In this document: piece by piece, positions 169-41,924 of the stretch
Position numbering within the stretch: the first letter of the stretch is position 1
How the letters are laid out: each line of letters opens with the position of its first letter
DNA from: Deltaproteobacteria bacterium
GTDB lineage: Bacteria > UBA10199 > JADGCS01
Assembly: GCA_015228875.1 (NCBI GenBank)
Contig: JADGCS010000001.1
Span: 55,886 to 119,885 of the forward strand
DNA length: 64,000 bases
Reading direction: 5' to 3'
Translations under genes and position numbers: made by a program
The notes under the pieces: model-generated
What the model saw: only the letters and a program-made list of their open reading frames with translations
The model's database searches: none
Told to the model about the DNA's origin: nothing

Positions 169-1731
169 ATGGGAAACGATAGCGATCATATAAAAAACGA
201 TTCAAACAATGGGCGGGAGCAGCGGACCTACGAAAGACACTCATCAAAGACTGGTGTAGCTCGCAGGACCTACACCAAGGATAACAACAGAAGGCCGTCA
301 AGATATTCAAACGATGACAGGGACAACAGAGATATGAGGGATAATAGAGACATGAGAGACAACAGGGATGTTCGTGAAAACGGTGTGGTGACCGAGCAAA
401 AAAAAGTCAGCATCAAAGATATAGACCTGACCATCATGGCCCAAGAGGCCCCCAACCTGGTCCATTTTTTTTCGGGCAACGAGGCCATCTACCTTAAAGA
501 ACTCAAAGAGGTCGACATCAACGAGCTCATTTCCGTGGGGAGGCTCTTTGGTGTCGAAAATCCTTCAGGACTCAAAAGACAAGAGCTCATCTTTGCCATT
601 CTGCAGGCACAAAAGGATACGGGGGATATATACGGCGAGGGTGTCTTAGAGACCCTGCCGGACGGTTTTGGTTTTTTAAGGGCCACAGATTTTAACTACC
701 TGCCGGGGCCGGACGATATTTATGTCTCTCCCTCGCAGATCCGCCGCTTTAATCTGCGAACAGGCGATACAGTCTTTGGTCAGATCCGTCCGCCCAAAGA
801 GGGTGAGCGGTACTTTGCGCTTCTTAAGGTCGACAAGGTCAATTTTGAATTGTCCGAACAAGCTCGTAACAAAATTCTGTTTGACAACCTCACACCGTTG
901 TATCCCAACAACAAATTCAACCTCGAACACTCCACCAAAGAATACACATCCCGCATCATTGACCTCTTAGCCCCCATTGGCAAGGGTCAGAGGGCAATGA
1001 TTGTGGCGCCCCCAAGGACTGGTAAAACAATGATGCTGCAAAATGTCGCCAATGCCATCAGCGCCAACCATCCGGATGTCACACTCATTGTGCTGCTCAT
1101 CGATGAGCGCCCCGAAGAGGTCACCGACATGAAACGCTCCATTAGGGGTGAGGTGATCAGTTCCACATTTGACGAACCTGCCACGCGTCACGTTCAAGTT
1201 GCCGAGATGGTCATCGAAAAGGCCAAGCGCCTTGTCGAACACAAAAAAGATGTCGTGATCCTGCTCGATTCAATCACGCGCCTTGCAAGGGCCTACAATA
1301 CTGTTGTGCCGCCATCCGGCAAGATCCTGTCTGGTGGTGTCGATTCTAATGCGCTTCACAAACCCAAGAGATTTTTTGGCGCTGCCCGCAACATAGAAGA
1401 GGGTGGTTCGCTCACCATCATCGCGACGGCCCTTATCGATACCGGTTCGCGCATGGACGAGGTCATCTTCGAAGAATTTAAGGGCACAGGTAATTCCGAA
1501 ATCCACCTCGACCGCAAACTCATGGAAAAGCGCATCTTCCCGTGCATGGATGTCAACAAGTCCGGCACCCGAAAAGAAGAACTCCTCCTTAAACCAGAGG
1601 TCTTAAGCCGCGTCTGGATCCTTCGCAAACTCCTCCACGCCCTCAACGTGGTCGACACATTAGAGTTTCTGCAGAGCAAAATGAAAGACACCGCGGACAA
1701 CACAGACTTTTTGGAGTCGATGAATAAGTAG
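169..1731 (+). CDS. rho: Transcription termination factor Rho with N-terminal low-complexity (DNRDMR)x3 insertion
   Basis: RNA-binding motif [18 protein letters not shown]...ERYFALLKV. Walker [19 protein letters not shown] and conserved C-terminal ATPase region. The N-terminus is rich in R/D/N repeats. Confidence 0.93.
322..375 (+). repeat. 3x tandem 18-bp repeat encoding DNRDMR / DNRDMR / DNRDVR inside rho
   Basis: gacaacagagatatgagg / gataatagagacatgaga / gacaacagggatgttcgt read directly from the sequence. Confidence 0.85.
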
Positions 1732-1768: not shown

Positions 1769-3844
1769 CTACTTACCTGGCTTTTTTTCGATCCTGCAGA
1801 TCTTGGAACACCCGTCACCATTCCTTTGGTTGCCATCGTCACATTCCTCGCTGCCGGCTTTTTTCCCGTTGCCACACCCCTTTGTGCATTGGCTGGGGTT
1901 ATTATAATTGCAGGCATAACCGCTCTCAATGGCGCAGGCTGAACACCCATCACCGCTGACATTTGGTTCTGCAGAATTCATACCATCTATTGCAGAACGT
2001 GACAGTTGGGTGATTGTTTGTGAAGACACATCGAGACCAAAAATTGTAAAGCCTTGCCGACTCGTGCCAGTCCATATTGATGAACCGGAATTAAAAACAA
2101 CCTTGTTACCATCTGATGAGGTTCTTTGATCAAAAGAATGTCCGTTACCCTGAACGCCACTTGCATCCTTGGATACAAGCGAAATGTTATTCCGCACGCG
2201 ATCATAACGAAACAGATCTTTCATTGTTCTGTTGGTGTCAAGTCTGGTCAATCCGGGATCTTCGGACACAAAGACTACATAGCGCCCGTCAAAACTGACT
2301 TGTGGTTTGTTTGATGCTCCTGTTGGCTCCGCCCCGTCGTGTCTCATCGAAATACGCGTGAAAGTACCCCCAACAGCATTTTTTTCGTAAAGAAACACAT
2401 CTAATTTATTATTGTTGTCATTGGGTACAAGATTGGTTGCCTCCGATTCAAAGGCGATAAAGTTACCGTCGTCACTTATGCTGGGATTATCAGATGCCCC
2501 ATTGGCATCTGACCCATCATCACCCTGAGTGATTTTTTGCGTCCTGCCTTCCACAAGATCGTGAATACATATGTTTTTGATGTCATTGATTGTGCAAACA
2601 AAGGCCAGATAGCGGGCATCGGGTGTGATTTGTGGGTTTGTATTTTGCCCAGAAAGGTCAAGGCCCTCACCGTGAAGTTTTATGAGTTGTGCATCGAATG
2701 GGTCGGGGTAGGTCAGCCTTCCAGTGGCGGCACGCTCGTGCGTTACAGAGTCACGACACATGACTTCGTATGCAATGGTCGCGGTATCATCCATTCCGGG
2801 GCTGGTTCTCAAGTTGACGCCAAACCAGCCGTCAAACCATTCGGTCTCTAAAGAAGATCCGGAATGTGTGTAAACCACCTTACAGGATATATTATTTTCT
2901 TTGTTAGTATTTGGTTCAAATCTCAGTTGACCATCGTCCAGCAAATGGACTTTCGTTGAGATAATATGCAAAGGGTTGTCGATGATAATGTGACGATGAA
3001 TAATTGTTTCATTCCCGTAAACATCGGTTACCTTGATGAGAAGGTCTGTTGCTCCATTTTTAAAAAGACGGGTATCAAAGTCAAAATCCCATGCGCCATC
3101 TACAACCCCAGTTACAACAGTGCAAACATGCGATGGATTACAAAGACTGATACGTCTCACCCCTGTGTCATCAAGGGCAACCCCACGGAATGTGACAGTG
3201 CCGCTGATCGTTGAATCTTCTGCGGGAGCGGTCAATGAGACTTGGGGGTTATTCATCACAAAATAGGCAATCCTGTCTTCAAACACAATTCCATCGGGGT
3301 CAGAGGTTCTCAGACGCAATTGATACGACCTGTTTTCTGTGACCGTCGGGACCGTTAATTCCCCCAAGACCCTTTCACCAATCACGGCACTCCCCCCCAG
3401 GCTGCTGATCACAGCGCCAGCGTCGTCAAGCCACTCCAGTGTATAGGGTGTTGGCGCGTCAGCATCCTCTGATCCCACAGAGCCCTCTACACTCAGGGTG
3501 TCTCCAGTGTTCAAGACGATCCCATTATGCGGGGACGTGATCATGACCTCGTAGGGATCCTGAATATCTAAAGCAATATCTGCCTGCACAAGGCCGTAAC
3601 CGTAGTATACATCAAAGCCAGGTGCCCCAAAGTCTGTGCCGCCCAGACGCAATGCCTGTTGCACCTGATCGTTACTGTATTCTGGGTGGGACTCGCGTAT
3701 GAGTGCGGCAATACCGCATACGTGAGGGGTGGCCATGCTTGTGCCGCTTTTCATCTCATAGGAACTACCTGGGATGGTTGATAAGACATCAACACCGGGG
3801 GCTGCCACATCAACGTTGATCCCAAAATTTGAGAAATCCGCGGA
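1769..3844 (-). CDS. S8 subtilase C-terminal fragment in the -1 frame relative to 3751..5112. It carries the catalytic Ser (SGTSMATPHV), PD40/TolB-like beta-propeller repeats and a C-terminal Myxococcus-type Cys-rich repeat.
   Basis: In frame B, upstream of the GTG the tool used, the sequence reads SADFSNFGINVDVAAPGVDVLSTIPGSSYEMKSGTSMATPHV. Repeated DGxxxAFxS units follow. The C-terminus reads ECDDGNQRNGDGCSKIC. Confidence 0.75.
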   Translation of the reverse strand, partial: SADFSNFGINVDVAAPGVDVLSTIPGSSYEMKSGTSMATPHVCGIAALIRESHPEYSNDQVQQALRLGGTDFGAPGFDVYYGYGLVQADIALDIQDPYEVMITSPHNGIVLNTGDTLSVEGSVGSEDADAPTPYTLEWLDDAGAVISSLGGSAVIGERVLGELTVPTVTENRSYQLRLRTSDPDGIVFEDRIAYFVMNNPQVSLTAPAEDSTISGTVTFRGVALDDTGVRRISLCNPSHVCTVVTGVVDGAWDFDFDTRLFKNGATDLLIKVTDVYGNETIIHRHIIIDNPLHIISTKVHLLDDGQLRFEPNTNKENNISCKVVYTHSGSSLETEWFDGWFGVNLRTSPGMDDTATIAYEVMCRDSVTHERAATGRLTYPDPFDAQLIKLHGEGLDLSGQNTNPQITPDARYLAFVCTINDIKNICIHDLVEGRTQKITQGDDGSDANGASDNPSISDDGNFIAFESEATNLVPNDNNNKLDVFLYEKNAVGGTFTRISMRHDGAEPTGASNKPQVSFDGRYVVFVSEDPGLTRLDTNRTMKDLFRYDRVRNNISLVSKDASGVQGNGHSFDQRTSSDGNKVVFNSGSSIWTGTSRQGFTIFGLDVSSQTITQLSRSAIDGMNSAEPNVSGDGCSACAIESGYACNYNNPSQCTKGCGNGKKAGSEECDDGNQRNGDGCSKICRIEKKPGK

Positions 3845-5112
3845 TTATCACCTGACTGTATTGCGGCAACGGTCACAACACCAGCAATGTTGGCAGGGTA
3901 GTAGTTGTAGGTATCAGAGTGATCGTTCCCTGCAGCGGCCACGACCACAGCATCCAGACTGCGCGCAAACGCAATCGCTTCACGCTCAACAAGTGATCCT
4001 TCATACGAGCTAACACGTCCCAGACTTAAATTGATCACATCAGCCCCCATAGTCGCCGCGTAGGTGATTGCCGCAGCAATATCCGAGGAGCGGCCTTTAC
4101 CAATTGATGATAGAGCTCGCACCGGCATGATCTCGCTCCCATGCGCAACACCAACCACACCGATCCCATTATCGCCCACAGCCGCAATGTTCCCTGCAAC
4201 GTGTGTGCCGTGATAATGTTGATCCATCGGGTTGTTATCCGGGCCTTCATCGTTGTAGGTTGTAAAATTGTAACCGTTAACATCATCAATGTAACCGTTT
4301 GCATCATCGTCGATGCCGTTATCGGGGATCTCGCCGGGATTTTGCCAGATATTCTCGCTTAAATCGGGGTGGTTGTAATCAACACCGCTGTCCACAACGG
4401 CAACAACGACGCCAGCCCCGGTGATGCCCTGTGCCCAAGCCTCAGGTGCGTTTACCCTGTCGATTCCCCAGAGTTCCGGCAGGGAGGGGTCATTGGGGAG
4501 GGGGACTGCGGGATCCACCTCATCGAGTGTAATCACCTCGTCAATTGTTACCGACTCCACATCTGGGTCGTTTTTAAGTTCGTTGATGAGATCTGTCACT
4601 GCGGGGTCTGTTTTGTCTTTGCTGATTTTTGCATCAAGCTTCATGACGTAGAAATCAGAGAGACGGGGAGTCTTGTCTGTGGGAGACCCCTTATTTTTAA
4701 GGGTTGGACGCTGTTGCTTGACCTTATTAAACACATCTTGATGCAACAGGCCTTCGGTTTTCCCCGATGTTTTCATTTTTTTTACAAGTCCGGTAAACAC
4801 GGGCCTTGTCTCGCTGATCTTTTTATGCTGATTAAAAAAGGTATCCAGTTTTGAACCTCCTGATTTTTTGATATCACCTCTCTTAAACCGCATTTTGTCT
4901 GCTGATAATCTGTCCTTTAACAGGCCGCCCAACCCAGGGGCACCGGACTTCGCGGGCTTAAATTTGACGATCAGGCGCACAGGTTCTTTTTCTGCATCCG
5001 CCTGTTGATCCAAAAGTGGATCTAAGCCCTTAAACTGGCCCTGCGTGAGGCAGGGGACAAGAAACAGACAGCCAATAAAAACGATCAACGCGATGGATGT
5101 GTTTTTAAACAT
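3751..5112 (-). CDS. Secreted S8 subtilase, N-terminal fragment: signal peptide, propeptide, and the catalytic Asp/His/Asn part
   Basis: Signal peptide MFKNTSIALIVFIGCLFLV. Motifs VAVVDSGVD, HGTHVAGNIAA and AAGNDHSD. The frame ends in out-of-frame residues after ...SGDNPR. Confidence 0.8.
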   Translation of the reverse strand: MFKNTSIALIVFIGCLFLVPCLTQGQFKGLDPLLDQQADAEKEPVRLIVKFKPAKSGAPGLGGLLKDRLSADKMRFKRGDIKKSGGSKLDTFFNQHKKISETRPVFTGLVKKMKTSGKTEGLLHQDVFNKVKQQRPTLKNKGSPTDKTPRLSDFYVMKLDAKISKDKTDPAVTDLINELKNDPDVESVTIDEVITLDEVDPAVPLPNDPSLPELWGIDRVNAPEAWAQGITGAGVVVAVVDSGVDYNHPDLSENIWQNPGEIPDNGIDDDANGYIDDVNGYNFTTYNDEGPDNNPMDQHYHGTHVAGNIAAVGDNGIGVVGVAHGSEIMPVRALSSIGKGRSSDIAAAITYAATMGADVINLSLGRVSSYEGSLVEREAIAFARSLDAVVVAAAGNDHSDTYNYYPANIAGVVTVAAIQSGDNPRISQILGSTLMWQPPVLMSYQPSQVVPMR

Positions 5113-5426
5113 ACAGGAGACCTCATTCGGTTAAGTGTTTAGCTATAGATGAAAGCAATTTTTGTGCCACTGCTTTGTTTTTTTGCTGGAATAACAATAG
5201 GTTACATGTTTGTCGCCCCAAAGACCTGTTATCAAATTGATAAATTATCATATTAGGGGGCAAAATATTGACACCAGAATTGCTGATACAGCTACAAAAT
5301 TAAAGGCTGATGCGACAGTCCAATCCACAGGTACCCTTAAAAAAAAGCAGAAAAACGCCTTTTTTCATACCAAAAAAAACAAAATAATGCCTTTATTCAT
5401 ATTAAAAAAAGCACTATAATAGAGCC

Positions 5427-13244: not shown

Positions 13245-14501
13245 TTGATCATGCGAATATTGGAATCTCTCAATGTCCCCAAAAATGACAACGATTTTCC
13301 GGTCGAAAAGATTCTCAATCACAAATTGATTCTTGAGTTTGAAAAACTTGCGCGGTTTAATTCGTCAAAGCAACTGGTTCAATCCGCAGAATTTCAACAG
13401 CTCAAGCAGCCGTTATCCGAGTTGATTTACGGATACGAGTACGGCTGTTATGTCGACGAATCCGACACGGCGAGAAAAAAACCATTTATCAGAGCTGTGT
13501 TGTGGCACCTTGAGAATGGGATTAACTACAACGGTATTCTCGAGACATTAAGAAACAGGGCGCTTGTGCGCAAGGCTGATATTTATTTTTTTCCCTCGAC
13601 CGACATTGGTATGGCCCGTTCGGGCAACAGAAATGTCATTCGCGATCTCGCCATCGAGCTTGGGTATAATTATTATTTTGCAACAACCTTTGTAAATCTG
13701 GATTCAAGCGATACAAATCATTTCGGACAAAAAACAAATGTGCTGGGGCTGGAGGGAAACGCCATCATGACAAGGTTTCCCGTCTCAAACTTAAGGTACG
13801 TCTCCCTTAATCATTATCACGATATTTTTAATGGTCCCAAAAAGATTCTGGGTTGCGAAAAGGTGCTGCTTGCAGACCTTGTCATCGATGACAACCGGCA
13901 TTTGACGGTTGTTTGTATCAATCTCCCCGATTATTCATCTCCGCGACACCGCTACAAATACATGCGGCAGGTGATGGGCAGCTTGAAAGACCATCAAATC
14001 AGAAAAACACCCATTTTGATTGGTGGGGATTTAAAAACCTCCACGTACAACTGTAAGACAGAATTGCATTTTTTCTTGAGTGTTCTCAATAAGGTCTATC
14101 GTGATTTTGATTTTATTGCAGGTGAGCACCATGTTTTTCCCGAGCGTTTCTTTGAAAAACATTTCTTTGATTACCTTAAAAGCAGGGGGTTTTATTTTGA
14201 TATTTTAAATGAGATGGGAACAGGGTGTTTTAACGTCAAACCAGAAGAAATTTTTGCTGCTTACACAAAAAAAAGAGATACAAAATTATACAATCTGGTC
14301 AGATCTTTGTTAAAAAACAGAAATGAAAAACTTTCGTATAAACACGACTGGTTTATAGGCAACCGCTTTATCAAGCCCAGCGAAAGTCATCAGGCGGAAA
14401 GACCAAAGGTTATTTCGCATTTGTTTTTTGATGGTCGTCCCGTATCGAGTCATGATCCTGTTCTACTGGACTTTGAGATTGCGGATGTTCGGAAAGATTA
14501 A
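13245..14501 (+). CDS. Endonuclease/exonuclease/phosphatase (EEP)-family protein
   Basis: GNAIMTRFPV and ILIGGDLKTSTYN resemble EEP catalytic motifs. The gene is AT-rich. Confidence 0.45.
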   Translation: MIMRILESLNVPKNDNDFPVEKILNHKLILEFEKLARFNSSKQLVQSAEFQQLKQPLSELIYGYEYGCYVDESDTARKKPFIRAVLWHLENGINYNGILETLRNRALVRKADIYFFPSTDIGMARSGNRNVIRDLAIELGYNYYFATTFVNLDSSDTNHFGQKTNVLGLEGNAIMTRFPVSNLRYVSLNHYHDIFNGPKKILGCEKVLLADLVIDDNRHLTVVCINLPDYSSPRHRYKYMRQVMGSLKDHQIRKTPILIGGDLKTSTYNCKTELHFFLSVLNKVYRDFDFIAGEHHVFPERFFEKHFFDYLKSRGFYFDILNEMGTGCFNVKPEEIFAAYTKKRDTKLYNLVRSLLKNRNEKLSYKHDWFIGNRFIKPSESHQAERPKVISHLFFDGRPVSSHDPVLLDFEIADVRKD

Positions 14502-14994
14502 ATGAATCAAAAAATCTCTTGTTGTCTTTTTTGGACGAAAAACCATGCTTTGAAATCACACCCAGTGTGTAGAGGGTATTGGCGTTAAAAAAGATACGGT
14601 AACAGATGTATTGCTGATCCTGCGTGACAAAACTGATTTCTACCCCCGCGTTTTTTTTCACGGTGATTTTTTTTTCTGATTTGACCGTTCCCATTTTGGT
14701 GTTCACAAGGATTGATTTTGTATTGTCAATAAAAAGCTGCTTGTCTTCTTGCGACAGTTCCGTGCTGTGGATTGAATAGATAATCTTGAATTGTGTGTCA
14801 CCGCTTTCGGACAGGACTGTGTTGACGGTGTATTCTGCCCTGACGGTGAAAGAAAACTGTGGTTCGGCTGGCAAAAGAATGGAGAACAAGTCATCGGGTG
14901 TCTGGTACTGTATCCAGTCAGGTTGATCATCAGCCTCTGCGCTGTTTGCGCATAAAGAAAACAACACGGCAATCAGCAGTATTTTTTTTATCAT
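14410..14994 (-). CDS. Secreted hypothetical protein (signal peptide)
   Basis: MIKKILLIAVLFSLCANSAEADD signal peptide. Its 3' end overlaps the convergent EEP gene by about 90 bp. Confidence 0.45.
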   Translation of the reverse strand: MIKKILLIAVLFSLCANSAEADDQPDWIQYQTPDDLFSILLPAEPQFSFTVRAEYTVNTVLSESGDTQFKIIYSIHSTELSQEDKQLFIDNTKSILVNTKMGTVKSEKKITVKKNAGVEISFVTQDQQYICYRIFFNANTLYTLGVISKHGFSSKKDNKRFFDSFNLSEHPQSQSPVEQDHDSIRDDHQKTNAK

Positions 14995-20665: not shown

Positions 20666-20938
20666 ATGTATACTGTTTATGAACACAAGAGAGTAAAATT
20701 GCAGATCAAGAAAGCTCCTCCAGATGTCAAAAGAAAGTATATGGCATGGAAAAGGATTATGGAACTCGAGGGTCAGTATGGACTGAGTTTTATCAAGGGA
20801 TTCCATGATGAGGGTTTAAAAGGCCAATGGAAAGGGTTTCGATCATCACGTCTTGGTTTAAAATGGCGCGTTATTTATAAAATATACAAGGATGATTTAG
20901 AGGTTTATGTGATCGAAATTAACCCACATAAATATTGA
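20666..20938 (+). CDS. higB: Type II toxin, RelE/ParE (HigB-like) family
   Basis: 90-aa basic protein ending ...GLKWRVIYKIYKDDLEVYVIEINPHKY, placed upstream of an HTH antitoxin. Confidence 0.7.
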   Translation: MYTVYEHKRVKLQIKKAPPDVKRKYMAWKRIMELEGQYGLSFIKGFHDEGLKGQWKGFRSSRLGLKWRVIYKIYKDDLEVYVIEINPHKY

Positions 20939-21222
20939 GAGGCAACATTATGAGAAAGATTAATAAAAAAAATTTTGAGAAAGCAAAAGATCACATCAAA
21001 ATGACTCCTGGTGAAATGCTTGTCACATTACGTAAACTGCAGGATATCTCGCAGAACGATTTGTCAGAGATGACGGGAATGAGCCAATCAAACATTTCCA
21101 ATATGGAATCAGGGCGCCAACAAATAGGAAGAGATAGAGCTCTCGTTTTGGCTCAGGCCCTCAAAGTGCATCCTTCAGTTATTCTGTTTCCAGATTACCA
21201 AATGGATGAATGTGCGGTATAA
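20935..21222 (+). CDS. higA: XRE-family HTH antitoxin (HigA-like)
   Basis: QNDLSEMTGMSQSNISNMESGRQ helix-turn-helix. Overlaps the higB stop. The alternative start ATG 20950 has a better RBS. Confidence 0.7.
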   Translation: MRGNIMRKINKKNFEKAKDHIKMTPGEMLVTLRKLQDISQNDLSEMTGMSQSNISNMESGRQQIGRDRALVLAQALKVHPSVILFPDYQMDECAV

Positions 21223-21322: not shown

Positions 21323-22210
21323 TCAATTATGAAAAAGCGGCACCTCGCGCATCTTGTCAAACTCTGCGGTATGAAATCTTTTCATGCGCTCCAATACCTT
21401 TTTGCCTGAAGCGGTGAGCTTTATGTACACCCTGCCCATGCAGAAATAGCCTTCAATAGAGGACCGGAACCGGTTGAGTTGTGCCTCGAAGACAGCCATG
21501 TCACTCTCCATGGCCTCGATTTGATTTTTCTTGTCCCTTAAGATCTCTACCAGTTGATGGGCAGCATGGACGTGGTCGGCCCTCTTTTGTTCGAGGCGCT
21601 CCTTTTTTTTGCCCGCATCTATTTCGGGGTTGAAGTAGCTCATGAATGACCGCGTCATGACCATCCACGATGAATTGACATGCCAGGATGTGATTTGATC
21701 TTCTATTTTTTCTATCTCCCTTGTGTGATGCAGAAGTTTTTTTGTGATCTCTACTGTTTGTCTTCTGATCGGGAAGATCTGATCCTGAACCGACTGGATA
21801 AAACCCTTAAGGGCTGAAATCTCAGAGACCTCCCATTGAATTTCCTGGGCAGCGCGCATTTTTACAAGGCCCTCATCGTTAAGCCTGTTAAGAAAAGAGA
21901 GGGGAACTGTTTCGAGATCATGGTTTGTTGTCCCTGTTTCGGCAAAGAGCAGGACGTCGAATTTTTTTACCTGTATGGAATCTGTTGCCGAAAAATCGCT
22001 TCTGATCCTTTCTATTTTTTTGCCTGGCCCCACTGTTTCTGAAGAGGGCGTTTGTAAATCCGATTGATAGGTGAGGGATTCATCCGCATCCAATGTCCCC
22101 GGAGGTACATCAGAGACAGAGATGCTTAACTCGTGCGAGAGCCCGCGATATTTTATATGGTCAGTCATGGCAGCAAGATAACGCATGAAGGAAATGATGA
22201 CTATAGGCAT
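21323..22210 (-). CDS. Hypothetical coiled-coil protein
   Basis: Long ORF without recognisable motifs. Confidence 0.4.
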   Translation of the reverse strand: MPIVIISFMRYLAAMTDHIKYRGLSHELSISVSDVPPGTLDADESLTYQSDLQTPSSETVGPGKKIERIRSDFSATDSIQVKKFDVLLFAETGTTNHDLETVPLSFLNRLNDEGLVKMRAAQEIQWEVSEISALKGFIQSVQDQIFPIRRQTVEITKKLLHHTREIEKIEDQITSWHVNSSWMVMTRSFMSYFNPEIDAGKKKERLEQKRADHVHAAHQLVEILRDKKNQIEAMESDMAVFEAQLNRFRSSIEGYFCMGRVYIKLTASGKKVLERMKRFHTAEFDKMREVPLFHN

Positions 22211-22299
22211 GCCTGATCACAAACCTTTGGTCTCTCGCGCATTGTTGTAGCGTATTGAAATTATTTATGTATTTCTCGTTAACATGACAAAGAACACCT

Positions 22300-24099
22300 G
22301 TGGGTCAGAAATGTAATAAACATTTTGAGATTGGTCTGAAAAGGGGTATGACCCTTTTGGCAGAACAAGCAGAACAAAGTGATACTATGATCAAACAACG
22401 CATCTTACTCTTTGCCCTTTTGTTTTCGATGACGCTTGCGGGGGTGCTGGGTCATCTGATCTGGAAGGACCTGCTGGGTCGCGAAAATAAAGGGTATGCT
22501 GTTAAAATGATCCGGGGTATGTATGCCCTTGTCAATAATGTCGATCAAGTTGTGCATCGACACATTACCCCGGAACTTTATAAAGACATTCTGCATCAGC
22601 CCCTATCAAAGACGTCTTTTAAGGACTCTCAGGTTTTTAATAATTTAAGAAAAGAACTCAAAAAAATTGACGGTCTTCACAATTTTTATATCGGATTTTA
22701 CACAGACTGTAGCGATGAAGAACCCGGTTCATGTTATTTTGATGACTACCCGGGTGGACAGGTTGTCAGGCGCTACGAGCCAGAGAGCCGCCCATGGTAT
22801 CTTGCCACGCATTCCCACACCGACTGGGTCCTGATCAACTTTATGAGGTTAAAGGAAACCCTCTCGACAGATTACCCTCCAAAGTGGGGATGGGTCTTGA
22901 GCAAAAAAATCGTTTACGATGAACAGGACGACCCTGCAGACAGCCCGCGGGACAAGGGTCTCTGGATCAACCTTTATATCCCGTTTGAGCAAAAAGAAAA
23001 TCTGGAACAGGACTTCAACGAATATCATGGCTCCATCCTTGAACTCGCCCTTTCAAAGGATTACCCCTATTTTTTCTTTTTTGAACTTTTTTTTAAGACG
23101 GTGCTGTTTCCCAAAAAAGCAATCTCTGATCCGGGATCACTGACCATCCTGTGCCATCAAAACAACGAGTACGAACTCTTCAGTTCTCTGTACAGGTCCT
23201 TTGTTTCCTGCCAGGTCAACAAAGAGACGATCCATTTTAATTTTTCAAAAAAATATGATCATTCCTGGCACCGCCTTTTTCTGGTGTTCATTGGACTCGT
23301 GTTTGTTTTTGTGACTTATTTTTTCTTCAGGTACATCCAGGGCCTTCAGATGCAGAGCATCAACAACAGACTGGAAATTGAAAAAGCCAAAACAGCAAAC
23401 TTGATCGGATCAAAGCTCATCCACGATCTCAAAAAGGGCATCATGGCCCCACTCAACCAACTCCCGCAGATTTATGAACACAACTTCGAGTCCGAGGCGC
23501 TGCAACGCGATTTTAAGGAGCGTCTCAAGGCCAACTTTAAACAGCATTTTAAATACTTAAGTTTGCTGAGTAAATACACTCAGCTTCTCACAAACAATTT
23601 AAAGAGAACGCGGGAAAAAAGGTGGGTCAAACTTGATCAGACAATCATGGTGCAATACCTCGACTGGATACTGGGCCGCCATGAAGTGGACATCATCCCG
23701 GTGAACGATGAAGATATTGTTTTAAGAATGGAAATCGAATCGACGGAAAAAATACAGGCAGGGCTTTATCTGTCGGTCAACTTTCCAGACATGTATATCC
23801 CCGAAATATCCTTTTACCGCATCCTTAAAAACATCTGGGAAAACTACAACGCCTACGGAAAAGGGTCGCTTGTTATTGAGTGCGAAAAGCAGAACCACAT
23901 GATGATTGTCAGGGCAACAAACCAGATCAAAGAGCAGACTGAACACACAGCGTCAGCAACCAATCTGGGGCTTACCATCATCAATCAACTTTTGGAGGAC
24001 AATTTTGGCGCAGAAAGGGTTAACGCCTCTGTCAAAAAAGATGATGATCTTTACCTGATCAACATTGTTTTCCCGATCCTTGAGGTTCCTCCCGAGTAA
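22300..24099 (+). CDS. Sensor histidine kinase with periplasmic Cache-like domain
   Basis: TM1, periplasmic region with RPWYLATHS (Cache PWY motif) and TM2. Then LIHDLKKGIMAPL (H-box-like) and a C-terminal ATPase with NLGLTIINQLLE. Confidence 0.6.
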   Translation: MGQKCNKHFEIGLKRGMTLLAEQAEQSDTMIKQRILLFALLFSMTLAGVLGHLIWKDLLGRENKGYAVKMIRGMYALVNNVDQVVHRHITPELYKDILHQPLSKTSFKDSQVFNNLRKELKKIDGLHNFYIGFYTDCSDEEPGSCYFDDYPGGQVVRRYEPESRPWYLATHSHTDWVLINFMRLKETLSTDYPPKWGWVLSKKIVYDEQDDPADSPRDKGLWINLYIPFEQKENLEQDFNEYHGSILELALSKDYPYFFFFELFFKTVLFPKKAISDPGSLTILCHQNNEYELFSSLYRSFVSCQVNKETIHFNFSKKYDHSWHRLFLVFIGLVFVFVTYFFFRYIQGLQMQSINNRLEIEKAKTANLIGSKLIHDLKKGIMAPLNQLPQIYEHNFESEALQRDFKERLKANFKQHFKYLSLLSKYTQLLTNNLKRTREKRWVKLDQTIMVQYLDWILGRHEVDIIPVNDEDIVLRMEIESTEKIQAGLYLSVNFPDMYIPEISFYRILKNIWENYNAYGKGSLVIECEKQNHMMIVRATNQIKEQTEHTASATNLGLTIINQLLEDNFGAERVNASVKKDDDLYLINIVFPILEVPPE

Positions 24100-25320
24100 T
24101 TGCTGATGATCAAACCATTTCTCAACATACTGCTGCTCGATGACGACAACAATTTCGCCGCAACACAGGCCGAAAACATCAGGCATCGGCTGCACGCGTC
24201 TTACGGGCTCGATAAAGAGGTTTTTTTTATTGAAAGCAGCACACGCCTGGATACGATTACCGAGACCATCAGCTCAAGAAACTGGGACGTGGTTTTGTGT
24301 GATCTTGGCTGGGGGGATCTTAATCTCGAAGGTATCCAGATTCTCAACGACATCAAAATGTCTTACCCTTCGGTCTACGCCTTTCTGTACACGGCTCAGG
24401 ACCCCAGTGACGAAACAGTGAGTCAGGCACTGCAGTGGAAGCTCAATTTTATAGATGACATCATCCCGATCGATGAGCAGGATTATACAATGCGCATGGT
24501 TGCCAATATCATCGACGTCTTTGAACGCAAGCGGTCCTTGCTCCTTTCCAAAAAGGATCCCGAGGATACCATTAAACTGCTCGAGGATTTTTTAAAGGCA
24601 GAGTCCGTACACAAAAATAAGATGTGCGAAAAAAACTTTGCAGAAGGGTACCTTTTTAAACACGTCTTTCCGGAGTGCCATTATCTGGCACTCACTGAGC
24701 CAGCTTTTGCTGATGATGTGGCAGGGGTGTGGAGGGGGAAGGTCTTAAACATCATTGATCAGCTAGATCACCAGACGCACGAACACGATGTGTCCATCAG
24801 GGGAACACGCTTACTCCCCAAAAATCAGAGGGTGGCGGTCATCAAGGATTTATCACGCGAGCTGCATGACATTCAAAAGAGGATACAACCGCTCCTCAAC
24901 GAACAGGCGGAATCACTCGCTGCCGAGATTTGTGTCTCCCAGTACGAGCTATCCATCAAGATTAAAGAAAACCCCATCGACCAGCGTTTAAAAAAATACA
25001 ACGACCTCATCCTTAACAAAAAAAGATTCCCGCGTGTCGAGGGCCATGACCTTCTTGCCCTCGATAAAACCTCTTTCATTGAGTTTATCAAGTCCACATA
25101 CGGTGGTTTTCCTCAAATGGCCGAAAGACGCGGGTTGGATCTTAACAATATTTACCGTGTCAACAGAAAATTTAAAAACCTGCCGTTTATTGTATTTAAA
25201 TACGAAACGATCGCCGAGATCATCGGCATTCACAATCCGGACGCCCTAAACGAAAAGATCGCCAGGCTGCTGTCACAGGAAAGACAGATCAGACGCGTTG
25301 TCAACAGACTGCCGCGGTGA
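24100..25320 (+). CDS. Response-regulator receiver protein with uncharacterised 250-aa C-terminal output domain
   Basis: ILLLDDD...VVLCDLGWGD...YTAQDPSD receiver motifs. The C-terminal domain was not recognised. Confidence 0.55.
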   Translation: MLMIKPFLNILLLDDDNNFAATQAENIRHRLHASYGLDKEVFFIESSTRLDTITETISSRNWDVVLCDLGWGDLNLEGIQILNDIKMSYPSVYAFLYTAQDPSDETVSQALQWKLNFIDDIIPIDEQDYTMRMVANIIDVFERKRSLLLSKKDPEDTIKLLEDFLKAESVHKNKMCEKNFAEGYLFKHVFPECHYLALTEPAFADDVAGVWRGKVLNIIDQLDHQTHEHDVSIRGTRLLPKNQRVAVIKDLSRELHDIQKRIQPLLNEQAESLAAEICVSQYELSIKIKENPIDQRLKKYNDLILNKKRFPRVEGHDLLALDKTSFIEFIKSTYGGFPQMAERRGLDLNNIYRVNRKFKNLPFIVFKYETIAEIIGIHNPDALNEKIARLLSQERQIRRVVNRLPR

Positions 25321-25328
25321 GGGCCAAG

Positions 25329-26252
25329 TCACCCATTTCCAATCCTGATTTTTTCCGAGGTTGTGTTTTCACGATTGTCTGATACCTCTGTCGCCTCTTT
25401 GCCCGATTGTTCCTCTATCGGGATTGGCATGTATTTGACATCCTCACGGGTGCTGTCCTCAATGAGGATCTGGCTGTCCTGAGTATCAGGGCCCCTGAAA
25501 AGCCCGTTATTCTGGGGCAGAGGTGTGTCTTCTGCGGTGGTTGCCTTCTGGGTCATGCCCCTGAAGAGCCCAAGGACAAGGCGCAGGATGTAAAGCGGAA
25601 TCACCGAAAACATGACAAGCGCGGTAAAACGGGAAAAGGGGGTGATGCCGTCAAGAATCATGGAGACATAGGCAGAGGTGTTAAACTGTGAAATAAAAAT
25701 ATCGACGGCACAAAAGACGCCAAAACCGATGATAGAGGCAACGGGAAAACGGATAAACATGAGATAATTGCGCGTGAGTTTTTTTATGCCAAATGCCAGG
25801 ACAAAGATGGATGTAAAACCCGATGCAATGGCCGCGGAGAGGGCAACAGCAGAGGTCAGGCGATAATTGATCAATTGATCGAGCAGGGTGTCGAACTGTG
25901 AGGTCTCAGGGTCGAGGCTGTGTTTTTTAAACATCATGAGCAGAAAGAAAGAGAGTAAGACCATGCCTGCGGTGTTGAGAGATGCATAAAAGGCGGATTT
26001 AAAGCCGTAAAATTCGAAGACAAGATACAGACAAATAAATGAGATAAAGAGTGCCATGTGGGAGAGTGGCATCAAGCCTGTGATGACGGTGATGTGTGGC
26101 TCACCGTCGGTTGTGGTGGCCTCAACACTGGGGTAGAACGGGATCTGCTTTGCGGACAGGACGAGTCCAAGGACCGCAATAGTGATCGCGACAGCAAAAA
26201 GCAGATACTGCACCAGGAAAATTTTTGTGGGGATGGGTTTCATATCTTGCAA
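25329..26252 (-). CDS. Integral membrane protein (possibly YhhQ/VUT-like)
   Basis: Six or more hydrophobic helices. The family assignment is tentative. Confidence 0.4.
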   Translation of the reverse strand: MQDMKPIPTKIFLVQYLLFAVAITIAVLGLVLSAKQIPFYPSVEATTTDGEPHITVITGLMPLSHMALFISFICLYLVFEFYGFKSAFYASLNTAGMVLLSFFLLMMFKKHSLDPETSQFDTLLDQLINYRLTSAVALSAAIASGFTSIFVLAFGIKKLTRNYLMFIRFPVASIIGFGVFCAVDIFISQFNTSAYVSMILDGITPFSRFTALVMFSVIPLYILRLVLGLFRGMTQKATTAEDTPLPQNNGLFRGPDTQDSQILIEDSTREDVKYMPIPIEEQSGKEATEVSDNRENTTSEKIRIGNG

Positions 26253-26311
26253 AAGCGTGGGCCATGAGAAATTCTGACGTATCCGCAGGAACGTCAGAAT
26301 TGCTTATGGTC

Positions 26312-26462
26312 TGGTAACTTCTCAATAAGTCATGGCGCATGCATACGTCATTGCGAGCGTACGCGAAGCAATCCCCCGAGTTCACTCATGAGATTGCTTT
26401 GGTCGCTTACGCTCCCTCGCAATGACGGCCGCAACTGCCAGGGGTTATTGAGAGAAGTTACA
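26312..26462. repeat. About 150-bp imperfect palindrome built from two inverted family-C units (cgtcattgcgag...aagcaatc) with perfect 15-bp outer arms
   Basis: gtaacttctcaataa (26314-26328) pairs with ttattgagagaagttac (26446-26462). The inner arms are also reverse-complementary. The centre is the palindrome ctcatgag. Confidence 0.8.
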
Positions 26463-26504
26463 TGGCCCGCGCTTTATTAACTGCATTTATTGGGTTTATG
26501 CAAA

Positions 26505-27257
26505 CTAATAGTACGCCCCGTACCCGGTCCACTGCTGCCAGGGATAGTGTGTGTCTGCTGTGACCTTGATCCAGAAGGGGCGCCCGGATGTTCTCCAGGG
26601 GTCAACGATCAGACCGTCCTTGAAGGGTCGTCCCATGGGGATAATGACAGCCACATTGTGTTCGGTAATTTTTTGCATGTTTGCTTCGCCCCAGACCACA
26701 TAGAAAAACCCGCGATTGACCGTCCTTAAATAAGCAAGCAGGTCCTCCGCCCAGTGTTTGCAGGCACCCCTCTTGCGCACGCCGACATCGATCATCATAT
26801 TGTGGACAATAGGAATAAAGATTGACCTGTAGGATTTTTTTAATCTTCTGATCTCGTTAAATAGGCCCACAGTCAGTACGGTGGCCTCGGTTTGCAGACT
26901 GGCGCGGTCAAAGTCGGTGTTTTTATAATGAGCAGTGTACAGATCGATCAGATCTTCCCTGAGTCTATAAAGGGGGTCGATTTGTTTTTTTTGTTCTACA
27001 AGATCAAAGTACTCTTTTTTGTAAGAGGCCTGTTTTTTAGAAAGCCTGTTTAGATTTTTGCCCTTGGAATTTTTGAATCGCCTGATGAGATCGGGCGAAA
27101 GGGTAGAGATCAGTTTGTTGTACCTTGTCGTTATCTCTGTGTGGTAAGAGTCGAAGTTTTCGGGGGTGATTTGAGTAAGGTAGTCCCGTTTTGCCATGGC
27201 AGAAGGGGAGATAAAGACAAAAATCAATAACAGGATCGAGATCAGGGTCTGTTTCAT
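26505..27257 (-). CDS. Secreted hypothetical protein
   Basis: MKQTLISILLLIFVFISPSAMA signal peptide. Confidence 0.45.
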   Translation of the reverse strand: MKQTLISILLLIFVFISPSAMAKRDYLTQITPENFDSYHTEITTRYNKLISTLSPDLIRRFKNSKGKNLNRLSKKQASYKKEYFDLVEQKKQIDPLYRLREDLIDLYTAHYKNTDFDRASLQTEATVLTVGLFNEIRRLKKSYRSIFIPIVHNMMIDVGVRKRGACKHWAEDLLAYLRTVNRGFFYVVWGEANMQKITEHNVAVIIPMGRPFKDGLIVDPWRTSGRPFWIKVTADTHYPWQQWTGYGAYY

Positions 27258-27543
27258 ATGTCTGATAAAACCTTTCTTGCGTTGCATGGGTTGGCAGGCA
27301 CCCCTGTTTTACCATGAAGATTATGCAAAAATCCATGGCGCAAAGCGGCCCTGACGGATGTAACCATTTTTGGCAGAAATCAAGAGAATACTCACTTTAA
27401 ATTAACTTGAAAATTATGCAAAAAGGAAGACGCGTTCAATGCGTCTTTGTTTTTGCCGAAAAAAAATGACATTAGTTTTATTGCATTAACAGGGATGGCG
27501 TTGTAAATGTTCGTATCCTGCAAATCATGGGGAGGGGGGGACA

Positions 27544-27936
27544 ATGGAGCCTTCTAAGATACTGCTTGTCGATGATGAAAGAGGCTACATCGATAGTCTT
27601 TCGGGGCGCCTTGTGATTCGCGGTTTTGATGTCCGTGGCGTCGAGGATGGTTTTAAAGCCATCGAAGCCCTTAAGGATTTCAGGGCAGATGTCGTCCTGC
27701 TTGATGTGGTCATGCCAGGCAAGGACGGCGTGCAGACGCTCAGGGAGATCAAACAAAATTACCCCAACATTGAAGTCATCATACTCACAGGCAACGCAGA
27801 TGCGCAGACAGCGATTAACGTAATGGAGCTCGGGGCCTTCGACTACCTTCTTAAACCGGTTGGTGTGGATCATCTTGTCTGCAGGCTCAACGATGCCTGC
27901 AAGAAAAAAATGCTGCTCTTAAAAAAAGTGTATTAG
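27544..27936 (+). CDS. Single-domain response regulator (CheY-like receiver)
   Basis: ILLVDDE...VVLLDVVMPGKDG...IILTGNAD...LLKP. Confidence 0.9.
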   Translation: MEPSKILLVDDERGYIDSLSGRLVIRGFDVRGVEDGFKAIEALKDFRADVVLLDVVMPGKDGVQTLREIKQNYPNIEVIILTGNADAQTAINVMELGAFDYLLKPVGVDHLVCRLNDACKKKMLLLKKVY

Positions 27937-28152
27937 CCGTTTGTGTCGAGCGGCAATGCGCTTGAGAACATAACAAGTGTCTGTCGGTAAATGCCCTGTT
28001 TCTTCGGAAGTTTGAAAATTTTGCCGCTTGCAAAATATTTCAAACCCTGAAAAATCATGTCTTTATGTTTTGTCACGGGACATGATTTTTCAGGACTCCT
28101 GCGAAACAGGGCGTTTACCGACAGACACAAACCAAGCCAGCGAGGTACAAAA

Positions 28153-29433
28153 ATGAAAAAAATGAGAAAAGTCTACGACATGATGCTGGAGGCATCAGTG
28201 GCTCATGCAAAATGGGATTACGAGGTCTCTTCCAATATCTTAAAAAGAAAGAGTCGTCTCCTTATCCTTTTTATTCTCCTGCTTCCGATTATACTGGTGT
28301 CCCTTGCGCAGGCAACAGGCAATCTGCCGGTATCTCTCGGCGGAAAGGAAACTTACACACCAGAGTTCTACACAACATCGGTCTTTCTCCTTTCGATTGT
28401 CATCGGTTTTTGTGCCGGACTCATTACGGGCTGTATCGGTGCGGGTGGCGGGTTTATTATTACGCCCGCCCTGATGAGCATTGGGATCAAGGGCATCCTG
28501 GCCGTGGGGACAGATCTTTTTCATATCTTTGCCAAGGCCATTATGGGAACTGTCATTCATAAAAAACTGGGAAATGTCTGCGTGGGACTTGCTGTGGCCT
28601 TTCTGGTTGGTTCCGGTATTGGTGTGGTTGGCGGGGGTGTGATTAACCGTACCTTGTACGAGATCAACCCCATCTTAAGCGATACCTTTATCAGCCTGTT
28701 TTATGTGTTTCTGCTCGGGTTTCTGGGAGTCTATGCCCTGACGGACTTTTTAAGGCTCAGAAAAAAGGGGGAAGATGTCGATGTGCACCGGAGCGGCAGC
28801 TCGCTCAAAGAAAAAGACGGAAGTTTAAAAAAAGCAACCCTCTCTTCAAGGCTTCAGGCCTCCAATATACCGCCCGTTATTAACTTTGATCAGGACCTTG
28901 TCCCTGGTGGTAAAAAAATTCCGGCTCTGTTTGTGGCGATCTGCGGTTCAATAGTGGGTTTTGTGGCCGCGATCATGGGTGTGGGCGGCGGTTTTTTGAC
29001 CTTCCCCATGTTTGTGTACATCCTAGGCGTGTCTTCTTACACAACTGTCGGGACCGACATCACACAGATCATTTTTACGGCCGGTTTCGCCTCGATCACC
29101 CAGTATGCCATTTATGGTTTTATTTTTTATACCTTGGCGATGGGGATGCTGATTGGTTCGCTGGCGGGTATCCAGATCGGGGCGTTGACCACAAAGGTTG
29201 TCCGTGGAATTTATATCCGCGGGTTTTATGCCATGGCCATCCTTGCCGGTTTTTTTAACAGGCTTTTTATCCTGCCCAAAAAACTGGATGAGTTGGGGGT
29301 GATTGCGATCCCCAAGACAATACTGGCAGTCCTCACCCAGTTTGGCACGATCAGTTTTTATATTACCATTGCCATTTTTGCGCTGTGGGTGACGAGCAAG
29401 TTTTTTCTTAATATCAAACAGCTCAGGGCCTAA
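28153..29433 (+). CDS. TSUP (TauE/SafE, DUF81) family membrane transporter, tandem two-domain form, paralog 1
   Basis: Two GxGGG signatures: GCIGAGGGFIITPALMSIG and MGVGGGFLTFPMFVYILG. Multiple transmembrane helices. Confidence 0.7.
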   Translation: MKKMRKVYDMMLEASVAHAKWDYEVSSNILKRKSRLLILFILLLPIILVSLAQATGNLPVSLGGKETYTPEFYTTSVFLLSIVIGFCAGLITGCIGAGGGFIITPALMSIGIKGILAVGTDLFHIFAKAIMGTVIHKKLGNVCVGLAVAFLVGSGIGVVGGGVINRTLYEINPILSDTFISLFYVFLLGFLGVYALTDFLRLRKKGEDVDVHRSGSSLKEKDGSLKKATLSSRLQASNIPPVINFDQDLVPGGKKIPALFVAICGSIVGFVAAIMGVGGGFLTFPMFVYILGVSSYTTVGTDITQIIFTAGFASITQYAIYGFIFYTLAMGMLIGSLAGIQIGALTTKVVRGIYIRGFYAMAILAGFFNRLFILPKKLDELGVIAIPKTILAVLTQFGTISFYITIAIFALWVTSKFFLNIKQLRA

Positions 29434-29554: not shown

Positions 29555-30256
29555 ATGATTATTGTAAACAAAAAAACTTTTTATACCGGTTTCTTTATGG
29601 CTGTTGTCTTTGTTTGTGTCCTTGTGGGCATGTTTATGCCTTTGTTCGAGGGAAAAAACGCCTTTGAGTCCGCTGATGACCTGTTTAATTCACTTTCCAA
29701 GGGCTCAACGTATTATATACCCGGTGTTGAGAAGGAGGTCCGGGCTATGGGGCACCAGCCCATCACTTCCGAACAAAAAACCACCGACACAGCAGACACA
29801 CTCAAGGTGTTGACCACAAACAATATACAGGTTGTTCCATCGGGCGATAAGATCAGTGTGACGGGAAACCTCGACGATATCATCAGCGTCGCACTTGGTG
29901 ATGCAGACTTAATGTTTAAAAATGACGGGGACGCGATTGTAAAAAAGTACGGTATTCCCGAGGCAAAAAGGGTGGTCTACATTTGGTGGCATGTATTGAC
30001 CGGTCTCGAAAAATCCCTCGAAAAGGCAGAACGCTTTAAAGAGGCGGCCATGACAAAAAAGGCCAAGGCACGGGGGATAGAGGTTGCCTACAATTTTTTC
30101 GCAATTAATTCACAGGATATCTCGCAGAAGTGGGGGATTCTTTTATTCTCACTGATATTCTATGTGTGCTACACACTGTGGTGGGGTTATGCCATTTTTT
30201 ATCTCGTAGATGGTGTGGGACTCAAACTCAAACCGGGCATGAAAAAAGAGGCGTAA
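29555..30256 (+). CDS. Hypothetical membrane protein
   Basis: N- and C-terminal transmembrane helices. The gene sits between TSUP-1 and the ppsA-like gene with 8-bp spacing. Confidence 0.45.
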   Translation: MIIVNKKTFYTGFFMAVVFVCVLVGMFMPLFEGKNAFESADDLFNSLSKGSTYYIPGVEKEVRAMGHQPITSEQKTTDTADTLKVLTTNNIQVVPSGDKISVTGNLDDIISVALGDADLMFKNDGDAIVKKYGIPEAKRVVYIWWHVLTGLEKSLEKAERFKEAAMTKKAKARGIEVAYNFFAINSQDISQKWGILLFSLIFYVCYTLWWGYAIFYLVDGVGLKLKPGMKKEA

Positions 30257-32864: not shown

Positions 32865-33438
32865 GACCACTCGTAATCCCCAAAAAATCAAGAAGTTTGT
32901 TTTTAAATCTGATTGTGAAGGCTGGCTTTGGTCCCTCGGGGTCTGTGGGAGGGGTGTGCAGTATTTTGTTGTCACGCGCATCGCTTAATCTTGCGATCAA
33001 ACAGTCCATGTTGATGGGTTTAAGGAGATAAGCAAAGGCCCCTGATTCGAGAATGCGAATAGACAAATCCATATCTGCATGAGCGGTGAGGACAATAATT
33101 TCACACAAGGGGTGCCTTTTTTTGATTTGCTGAATGCAGTAGATGTCCTCAGCGTTGGGGGCCTGTGTGTCAAGCAGGATTACATCGGCCTTAAAAGTGG
33201 CCAGCGCTGCCAAAAGATCCTCCCGGCATGAAACACCCACTGTGTCAAGGTTTCTTGCCTTAAAGATTTTGATCATCCTTTCCCTGTAGTAATCGACATC
33301 GTTAACAAACAACACCCTGGTGCGTTCTGCATAAATCGCGTCACGCGTGCGTGGGTGATCCAAAGACACACCCTTTCGATCAGACACCCCCTCTCTAATC
33401 AAGGCGGGGTAATAACTGATGACACTGTGAAAGCTCAT
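32836..33438 (-). CDS. Response-regulator receiver-domain protein
   Basis: VLFVNDVD...VILLDTQAP...IIVLTAHAD...YLLKP. Confidence 0.7.
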   Translation of the reverse strand: MSFHSVISYYPALIREGVSDRKGVSLDHPRTRDAIYAERTRVLFVNDVDYYRERMIKIFKARNLDTVGVSCREDLLAALATFKADVILLDTQAPNAEDIYCIQQIKKRHPLCEIIVLTAHADMDLSIRILESGAFAYLLKPINMDCLIARLSDARDNKILHTPPTDPEGPKPAFTIRFKNKLLDFLGITSGLRPVLKHPQ

Positions 33439-33700: not shown

Positions 33701-35131
33701 CTACCCGACCGTTGAGCGCACCTTGAGATTGTATTTTTCGATCTTGGCCTGAAGCGTTGGTCTTGTGAGCCCCAGAAGTTTGGCGGCATTGGTCCTGTTG
33801 CCATCAGTCAATTTGAGGGCTTCAGCGATAATGATTTTGCCGAACTGGTCCATTAAAGAATCAAACTTGCCATCTTGGGTCGTCGCATCGAACATGTGAC
33901 GAACAAGCTGTTGCACACTGCATTCGGGGTCGCTCATAAATTCATTGGGTGTCTTTGTGTTTTTTTTGCACAGGATAACCTGCCGCAGGTCCTTGACCTC
34001 AACGGGGGCGCCTTGAGAGAAGATCAGAACCCTTTGAATGGTGTTTTGCAGTTCCCTGACATTGCCTGGCCAGTTGTATTCTAAGAGCATGGCAACGGCA
34101 TCTTCAGTCAGGCCTGGATTGGGTTTGCCGTTTTGTGCCGAGAAAAAACTCATGAAATAATCGGTGAGCAGAGGGATATCTCCCTGACGGTCGCGTAAAG
34201 GCGGGACATTAAGGGTGACAACTTTAAGTCTGTAATAGAGATCCTCCCTGAAACTTCCCTCCGCAAGAGCCGCTTCAAGATTGCGATTGGTCATGGCCAC
34301 AATTCTCACGTCGACAGGAATGGTCTCTCTGCCGCCGAGTCTTTCGATGCATTTTTCCTGCAGGAGTCTTAAAATCTTTGCCTGAATATTTGCCGGCATA
34401 TCGCCGATTTCATCGAGGAGTACGGTTCCCTTGTTTGCCTGTTCAATCTTCCCCAGTTTTCTGCTGACGGCGCCAGTAAAGGCGCCTTTTTCGTATCCAA
34501 AAAGCTCGCTTTCGAGCAGGGTGTCGGGGATAGCCACGCAGTTGATGACGACAAAAGGTTTGTTGGATCGTTCGCTGTGCTGATAAATGGCTCTGGCCAC
34601 GAGTTCCTTGCCTGTGCCAGTCTCGCCGCGCACAAGCACTGTGGCATCGTTGGGTGCAACATGCCCGATTTCTTTGTAGAGCTTTTGCATAACCTTGCTT
34701 TGTCCTACAATGACATCGGACTTTGTCCCATCGGCAATGATATTCATGTCTATTCTTTTTCTCATGAACTGGCCCGACTTAATGGCGTCTTTGATGAGTT
34801 CAAGGATCTCCGGGATATCAAATGGTTTAAAGATGTAATCAAATGCCCCCATCTTGGTCGCTTCGATGGCCATATCTGTGGTTCCGTACGCAGTCATGAT
34901 GATCAATGGGAGTTTGGGATCGATATCGTGAATGATCAAAAAAGCGTCATACCCACTCATGCCAGGCATTTTGATATCCATCAAGACAAGGTCGGGAGAG
35001 CGGGACTCAACCAGATTGATGCCCTCCTGCCCGGTCTGTGCAATGATGACGTTATAGCCCTCAGCGATCAGAATTTTTTTAAAACTCTTGAGAAGCTGCA
35101 GATCATCATCGACTATGAGAATGGTTTCCAT
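33701..35131 (-). CDS. Sigma-54-dependent transcriptional activator (NtrC family response regulator)
   Basis: Receiver domain, AAA+ domain with GETGTGKELVARAIY and GAFTGA, and a C-terminal Fis-type HTH. Confidence 0.93.
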   Translation of the reverse strand: METILIVDDDLQLLKSFKKILIAEGYNVIIAQTGQEGINLVESRSPDLVLMDIKMPGMSGYDAFLIIHDIDPKLPLIIMTAYGTTDMAIEATKMGAFDYIFKPFDIPEILELIKDAIKSGQFMRKRIDMNIIADGTKSDVIVGQSKVMQKLYKEIGHVAPNDATVLVRGETGTGKELVARAIYQHSERSNKPFVVINCVAIPDTLLESELFGYEKGAFTGAVSRKLGKIEQANKGTVLLDEIGDMPANIQAKILRLLQEKCIERLGGRETIPVDVRIVAMTNRNLEAALAEGSFREDLYYRLKVVTLNVPPLRDRQGDIPLLTDYFMSFFSAQNGKPNPGLTEDAVAMLLEYNWPGNVRELQNTIQRVLIFSQGAPVEVKDLRQVILCKKNTKTPNEFMSDPECSVQQLVRHMFDATTQDGKFDSLMDQFGKIIIAEALKLTDGNRTNAAKLLGLTRPTLQAKIEKYNLKVRSTVG

Positions 35132-41702: not shown

Positions 41703-41924
41703 GGGGTTGTCCTCGCAAAAGTCTTTGTCCTACAATGTCTTGATGGTCTTTATTAAAGAAAAACTTAAAACCACAGAACGGTTGCAGCAACGACAAAGCT
41801 CAGGCAGGTCTTCTGACTTATGGGACTTGATATGATTTTATCAAGAGACGATTAAGGCAACCTTCCCATGTTTTGTCTGGCAAGCTAGCGCTTGGCGCAA
41901 CTACGCGACGAAATCTTCTGTTTT

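Follow-up and report, generated by a model that had tools for sequence, protein, structure and literature searches.

A 64,000-nt stretch of DNA (hereafter the window) from a metagenome-assembled genome (MAG) of an uncultured 'Deltaproteobacteria' lineage, taken from contig JADGCS010000001.1, carries on its minus strand, between positions 5112 and 1769, a gene for a large protease of the S8 subtilase family that is split by a one-nucleotide frameshift. The two halves of the gene lie in overlapping open reading frames (ORFs), here called ORF-N and ORF-C. A first reading of the letters (the original prediction) had placed such a frameshift near 3838–3845, and the switch is indeed located inside that interval, at 3842-3844. 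Of the two explanations offered at that time, a recent pseudogene or a sequencing/assembly error, both are retained, and the balance tips slightly towards a real loss of the base, which would have inactivated the gene very recently in the sampled population and made it either a young pseudogene or a segregating null allele, and not towards a programmed event. The reading frames concerned are the following.

5112→3751, minus strand: ORF-N, with an ATG start and TGA at 3753-3751, 453 aa.
3844→1769, minus strand: ORF-C, the open -1 frame, 691 codons from stop to stop, with its stop at 1771-1769.
3842-3844, minus strand: the frameshift point, where CC (3843-3842) is left of one ancestral codon between AAT (Asn423) and GCG (Ala425).

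Around the break the minus strand reads GGT GAT AAT CCG CGG ATT in frame 0 and TGA TAA TCC GCG GAT TTC in frame -1. The upstream boundary of ORF-C is formed by the in-frame TGA TAA at 3850-3845, and the first start codon within it, a GTG, stands at 3808 and would give a product of 679 aa. The two frames overlap by 94 nt, and ORF-N ends in a 30-aa out-of-frame tail (PRISQILGSTLMWQPPVLMSYQPSQVVPMR, followed by the stop). Because stop codons block the -1 frame as far as 3845, and GCG for the conserved Ala starts at 3841, the frames must join at 3842-3844, and one base inserted there restores a single ORF of 1114 codons. Neither half of the 3.3-kb subtilase gene contains any further stop or shift, and the gene looks native, its GC content (48.7%) being close to that of the window (47.8%). 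Its neighbours are rho on one side and, on the other, an AAA_14/DUF4143 gene paired with purA. Both ORFs are found verbatim in NCBI as adjacent separate proteins, ORF-N as MBF0103743.1 (453 aa) and ORF-C as MBF0103742.1 (679 aa, from GTG 3808), each under the title 'MAG: S8 family serine peptidase [Deltaproteobacteria bacterium]', on a contig of 125,110 bp. The frameshift is already present in the deposited MAG, and the annotation carries no frameshift flag.

Profile searches and alignments confirm ORF-N and ORF-C as halves of one gene. Searched alone against the Pfam Peptidase_S8 profile, ORF-N covers profile positions 1-184 of 288 (131.9 bits) and ORF-C positions 188-288 of 288 (61.8 bits); the conceptual fusion of both matches in one stretch, 1-288 of 288 (PF00082; 206.9 bits, gathering score 21.8, E 5.3e-61). 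Such consecutive coverage of a single profile over two frames rules out two chance ORFs and bears out the original claim of one S8 subtilase gene split by a 1-nt frameshift. For alignment, ...VAAIQSGDN and ADFSNFGINVDVAAPG... were joined in the fusion through a single placeholder residue, X. The MAFFT alignment of this X-joined fusion with 13 S8 homologues is gap-free from the VAA strand to the FSNxG motif, and the HMMER alignment to 3vv3_A (deseasin MCP-01; E 5.5e-57) is gap-free across the joint, with 'sgdnXadfsnfg' opposite 'srdnMssfsqwg'. Since the alignments need exactly one extra residue at the joint, that is, one codon present as two nucleotides, exactly one nucleotide is missing, in agreement with the single-base indel originally proposed. 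A 2-nt insertion was considered and rejected, as the protein would then be shorter by one residue than each of the 13 homologues, within an indel-free block.

Judged from its domains and predicted signal peptide, the conceptual product is a secreted multidomain serine protease of the subtilisin family (S8A), with a length of 1114 aa in place of the 1100 aa first given. The features of the product and of its upstream region are the following.

5038..5112, minus strand: predicted signal peptide, MFKNTSIALIVFIGCLFLVPCLTQG, recognized by eye from a basic N-terminus followed by a hydrophobic core.
3593..4419, minus strand: Peptidase_S8 catalytic domain, fusion residues 232-507, interrupted by the frameshift.
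3053..3247, minus strand: Big_7 bacterial Ig-like domain, fusion residues 623-687, 40 bits.
1994..2626, minus strand: PD40-type beta-propeller repeats, four units with the motif S-x-D-G-x-x-[IVL]-x-F, starting at fusion residues 830, 880, 940 and 999.
1784..1945, minus strand: C-terminal cysteine-rich acidic repeat, including ECDDGNQRNGDGCS.
5247..5274, minus strand: sigma-70-like promoter match upstream of ORF-N, 9/12 positions, a consensus match only.

No promoter-like site comparable to the one preceding ORF-N was found just upstream of ORF-C. A pro-region of ~200 aa, without a Pfam match, lies N-terminal of the S8 domain, and a stretch of ~110 residues without domain assignment separates the Big_7 domain from the PD40 repeats. 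The first two thirds of the catalytic domain are held by ORF-N, together with Asp241 (4392-4390, motif VVDSGVD), His304 (4203-4201, motif HGTHVAG) and the oxyanion Asn396 (3927-3925, motif AAAGND), while the last third, with Ser459 (3739-3737, motif GTSMATPH), is held by ORF-C. In the fusion these residues stand in the canonical Asp-His-Asn-Ser order and motif context and align with those of the homologues and of 3vv3_A. As deposited, no single uninterrupted frame encodes all of them, Asp, His and Asn being in frame 0 and Ser in frame -1, just as had been described at the outset.

Among the C-terminal modules, the PD40 repeats (PF07676) score 31.8 bits (cutoff 20.9) when residues 800-1051 are searched as a subregion, their units spanning about 830-1040; the putative propeller is assigned from the PD40 profile and the motif units. 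A scan of genome contigs with ORF-C gave only matches to the PD40 and Cys-rich repeats, the PD40 region being matched by L001 (E 7e-26) and L002 (E 2e-25). The original description of the propeller as 'TolB-like' holds at the level of the PD40 repeat and fails for the TolB equivalog model (TIGR02800), which was rejected at 26.5 bits against a cutoff of 343.15, the repeat type alone being in common. The Myxococcus-type Cys-rich repeat was correctly named, with 53.8 bits for TIGR02232 (myxo_disulf_rpt; cutoff 20.8) and 30.4 bits for DUF4215 (PF13948; cutoff 27). An assignment to the mycosins, which are associated with type VII secretion (TIGR03921), was also rejected; the score of 191.1 bits is below the equivalog cutoff of 278.75 and reflects generic S8 similarity only.

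If the mutation is genuine, the nucleotide lost at 3842-3844 (minus strand) would have belonged to a loop codon that immediately precedes the conserved A-x-FSNxG strand. A ribosome starting at the native ATG would then leave the frame past Asn423 and stop 30 codons on, so that the predicted ORF-N product would be a secreted fragment of 453 aa that keeps Asp, His and the oxyanion Asn and lacks a third of the fold together with the catalytic Ser. The downstream frame of 691 codons would retain Ser, and would have neither a signal peptide, nor Asp and His, nor an evident start signal. Both fragments would be expected to be inactive as proteases.

The modest preference for a genuine mutation draws on the state of the surrounding genes, on the nature of the site and on base rates. 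All other sizeable ORFs of the window, about 50, were checked, ~40 by Pfam and the rest by inspection (of the ten or so without a Pfam match, only 40431-41702 was checked by translation), and none looks split, so that the assembly is not indel-rich; the same observation speaks against an assembly error at the subtilase gene. ORFs with Pfam matches show essentially complete profile coverage, as for example those for Rho, PurA, FolE, alanine racemase, MlaE/F/D, CysS, the PPDK-like protein and the NtrC-type protein. The search for further split genes covered five same-strand pairs of overlapping ORFs and two small neighbouring ORFs, all of which were judged to be separate genes: eight of the ten paired ORFs have near-complete Pfam coverage, one encodes a lipoprotein with a signal peptide of its own and has no Pfam match, and ORF 50731-51135 was accepted as a separate gene without a Pfam match or translation check. 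The two small ORFs look like a toxin-antitoxin pair. Homopolymers are the usual place for sequencing indels, and none of 4 nt or more is present at the switch, which favours a real mutation over an error. In short-read consensus, indel errors outside homopolymers and repetitive sites are rare. Young pseudogenes in bacteria typically arise in long, non-essential genes for secreted proteins, and broken genes at ~1-2% of all genes are normal in bacteria; one in ~55 is within this usual rate.

Several considerations weigh against a genuine mutation. The source is a MAG, in which a consensus or local assembly error could produce the same break, and a lone lesion in an otherwise perfect gene is also what an artefact would look like. 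The preference itself comes from base rates, which are general knowledge and not direct evidence. In addition, no orthologue or second assembly was found that would show whether the break is shared. The search with the full-length protein recovered the deposited 679-aa fragment, the next best match having 49% identity over 26% of the length, and no orthologue exceeding this. A query of 209 aa spanning the junction recovered no identical fragment; the best match has 59% identity over a third of the query, and a match covering most of it has 51%. The junction-spanning search returned only proteins of <=366 aa, with the self fragments absent (an apparent length filter), and longer proteins were covered by the full-length search. 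In metagenome contigs, neither an exact DNA pattern spanning the junction, with a gap of variable length, nor a protein search with the middle region outside S8 found anything (0 matches and 0 relatives, respectively). Contig look-ups by exact product, made for ORF-N, ORF-C, PurA and Rho, had none on record.

The strongest competitor, an assembly or consensus error, is a real possibility that stands at somewhat under an even chance. The gene would then be intact in the organism, and the base would have been lost in metagenome assembly, in bubble-popping between strain variants, or in polishing. The origin of the sequence in a MAG contig of 125,110 bp fits such an error, as does the presence of one lesion only, with every domain and catalytic residue kept. 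A further point in its favour is the local sequence.

3835..3846, no strand assigned: perfect 12-nt palindrome AATCCGCGGATT (= aatccgcggatt), centred on the frameshift point.

Sequence-specific sequencing problems are known to occur at inverted repeats. On the other hand, a palindrome of 12 nt is shorter than any assembler k-mer. The window contains 24 palindromes of this length, against a mean of 17 in shuffles, and these cover about 0.45% of it; the corresponding prior chance of ~0.5% for a site to fall in a 12-nt palindrome is a post-hoc observation. A second perfect 12-nt palindrome, ATCAACGTTGAT, is present at 3809-3820, also within the 94-nt overlap of the frames. Restriction-site avoidance at the break was examined as well and rejected, as CCGCGG occurs in the window about as often as expected (18 times against 19.7).

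Programmed -1 (or +2) ribosomal frameshifting, by which a full-length protease would be made from the sequence as deposited, was considered unlikely in the original prediction, and it emerges from the present analysis as very improbable. Such a shift is geometrically possible, since the frames overlap by 94 nt, and two sequence elements could be cited for it: a 7-nt Shine-Dalgarno-like AGGTGAT immediately 5' of the switch, separated from the CCG codon by 3 nt, and a T_TTG_GGA heptamer at 3826-3820, the sole in-phase heptamer within the overlap. The latter lies downstream of ADFSNFG, a segment in which Ala is conserved in 11/13 homologues and Phe in 13/13; it is not the shift site, because this conserved segment upstream of it is already in the -1 frame, and the switch must be at AAT-CC-GCG. 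At the switch itself (3838-3846) there is no slippery X_XXY_YYZ heptamer in phase, no homopolymer and no Rfam element. Nor was a stimulatory RNA structure found in 121 nt around and downstream of the switch, where the minimum free energy is -30.4 kcal/mol against a shuffle mean of -29.4 (z -0.29). Shine-Dalgarno-like elements with a 3-nt spacer favour +1 shifting, as in prfB, and not -1 shifting (cf. dnaX), and here the +1 frame meets a stop 11 codons past the CGG codon. To our knowledge, recoding is unheard of in any S8 protease, and the collections searched yielded no orthologue in which conservation of the shift could show.

In its most developed form, this proposal would have the deposited sequence correct and some full-length protease still made, by non-canonical -1/+2 recoding at AAU-CCG-CGG, just downstream of the Shine-Dalgarno-like AGGUGAU. 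In a milder variant, the population would maintain the break as an on/off null allele that segregates, the secreted protease being costly. Recoding of this kind is a long shot; if it did take place there, AAU-CCG-CGG would be a new kind of frameshift site, and one in a secreted protease gene.

Hardly any credence at all can be given to two genuine, separately functional genes, as implied by the deposited annotation (MBF0103743.1, MBF0103742.1) and as might be argued from their deposition as separate proteins and from the possible GTG start of ORF-C at 3808: each piece is part of one S8 fold (1-184; 188-288) and carries part of the catalytic triad, a start at GTG 3808 would drop the conserved ADFSNFGINVDV strand, ORF-C is made of extracellular-type domains yet has no signal peptide, and the 120 matches listed in the junction-spanning search are all single polypeptides, the great majority covering 80-97% of the query and reading through.

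The main import of the split subtilase gene is for annotation hygiene. MBF0103743.1 and MBF0103742.1 are best regarded as fragments of one gene, which should be merged and flagged as frameshifted or as a pseudogene; unflagged, such fragments enter protein databases as though they were complete proteins. If the lesion is real, an uncultured 'Deltaproteobacteria' lineage would have lost a large secreted protease very recently; this would add a little to the record of gene decay and reveal no new mechanism.

Other features of the window were observed in passing. Rho, encoded at 169-1731 (+), has an N-terminal extension of ~105 aa rich in R/D/N repeats, Rho_N starting at residue 111. The ORFs at 20666-20938 and 20935-21222 (+) form a pair with a 4-nt overlap and resemble, by eye, a RelE/HigB-type toxin followed by an XRE-type helix-turn-helix antitoxin. 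Five sizeable ORFs in a row at 21323-27287 (295, 599, 406, 307 and 260 aa) lack any Pfam match at E<=1e-5, as do an 836-aa ORF and several more; these further ORFs lie at 51283-53793 (-), 13245-14501 (+), 14410-14994 (-) and 29555-30256 (+). A signalling cluster (27544-27936 (+), 32836-33438 (-), 33701-36597 (-), 28057-29433 (+) and 37088-38299 (+)) includes a histidine kinase with a 4HB_MCP sensor, an NtrC-type sigma-54 activator and two stand-alone receiver proteins, and is interleaved with two TauE/SafE-family permeases and an 866-aa PPDK_N/PEP-utilizer protein. A full-length cobalamin riboswitch (RF00174, 94 bits) is located at 41786-42083 (-), directly upstream of two lipoprotein-like ORFs. 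The first of these, 41702→40431 (-), encodes 423 aa with a lipobox-type signal and no Pfam match, and the second, 40501→39236 (-), has an internal start, MRVLPLLLFCLLPAC, and a weak Big_2 match only. Both may encode B12-regulated surface lipoproteins.

Compared with known systems, the conceptual fusion shares with the S8A subtilases (MEROPS S8A / PF00082) a full-length S8 profile, the Asp-His-Asn-Ser order, a signal peptide and C-terminal accessory domains. The closest solved structure is that of deseasin MCP-01 (PDB 3vv3), with which the catalytic domain aligns straight through the joint. The gene differs from those of other S8A subtilases by its 1-nt frameshift and, as written, would give no active enzyme. 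The accessory domains of S8 proteases are notoriously variable, and domain shuffling is the norm. Here the accessory set of Big_7, PD40 repeats and Cys-rich repeat is unmatched as a whole among the matches listed. Two S8+PD40 proteins (P0007, P0008) and one S8+DUF4215 protein (P0021) share with the fusion the S8 domain (44-47% identity) and one C-terminal module. All three are intact single ORFs, and in none are the two modules found together; as their similarity is confined to individual domains, they are not orthologues. The original remark that the domain combination is itself notable has little support: the S8+PD40 and S8+DUF4215 pairs each occur elsewhere, whereas the triple is unmatched among the matches listed.

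With the -1 frameshift sites of the dnaX and IS element types, the likeness is one of geometry only, namely overlapping -1 frames and a Shine-Dalgarno-like sequence upstream; the locus differs from them in having no slippery heptamer at the switch, no stimulatory structure and the wrong spacing of the Shine-Dalgarno-like element. Young frameshift pseudogenes offer a closer parallel, as there too one indel disables a gene that is intact elsewhere, and the same family model still recognizes both fragments. Such pseudogenes are flagged in annotation, whereas here the record is unflagged and lists two proteins, and the lesion is in a MAG. From these comparisons, the predicted protein belongs to the multidomain secreted subtilases, a very large family, in which no orthologue of it was found; it is built from well-known modules and encoded by a gene with an ordinary single-base frameshift.

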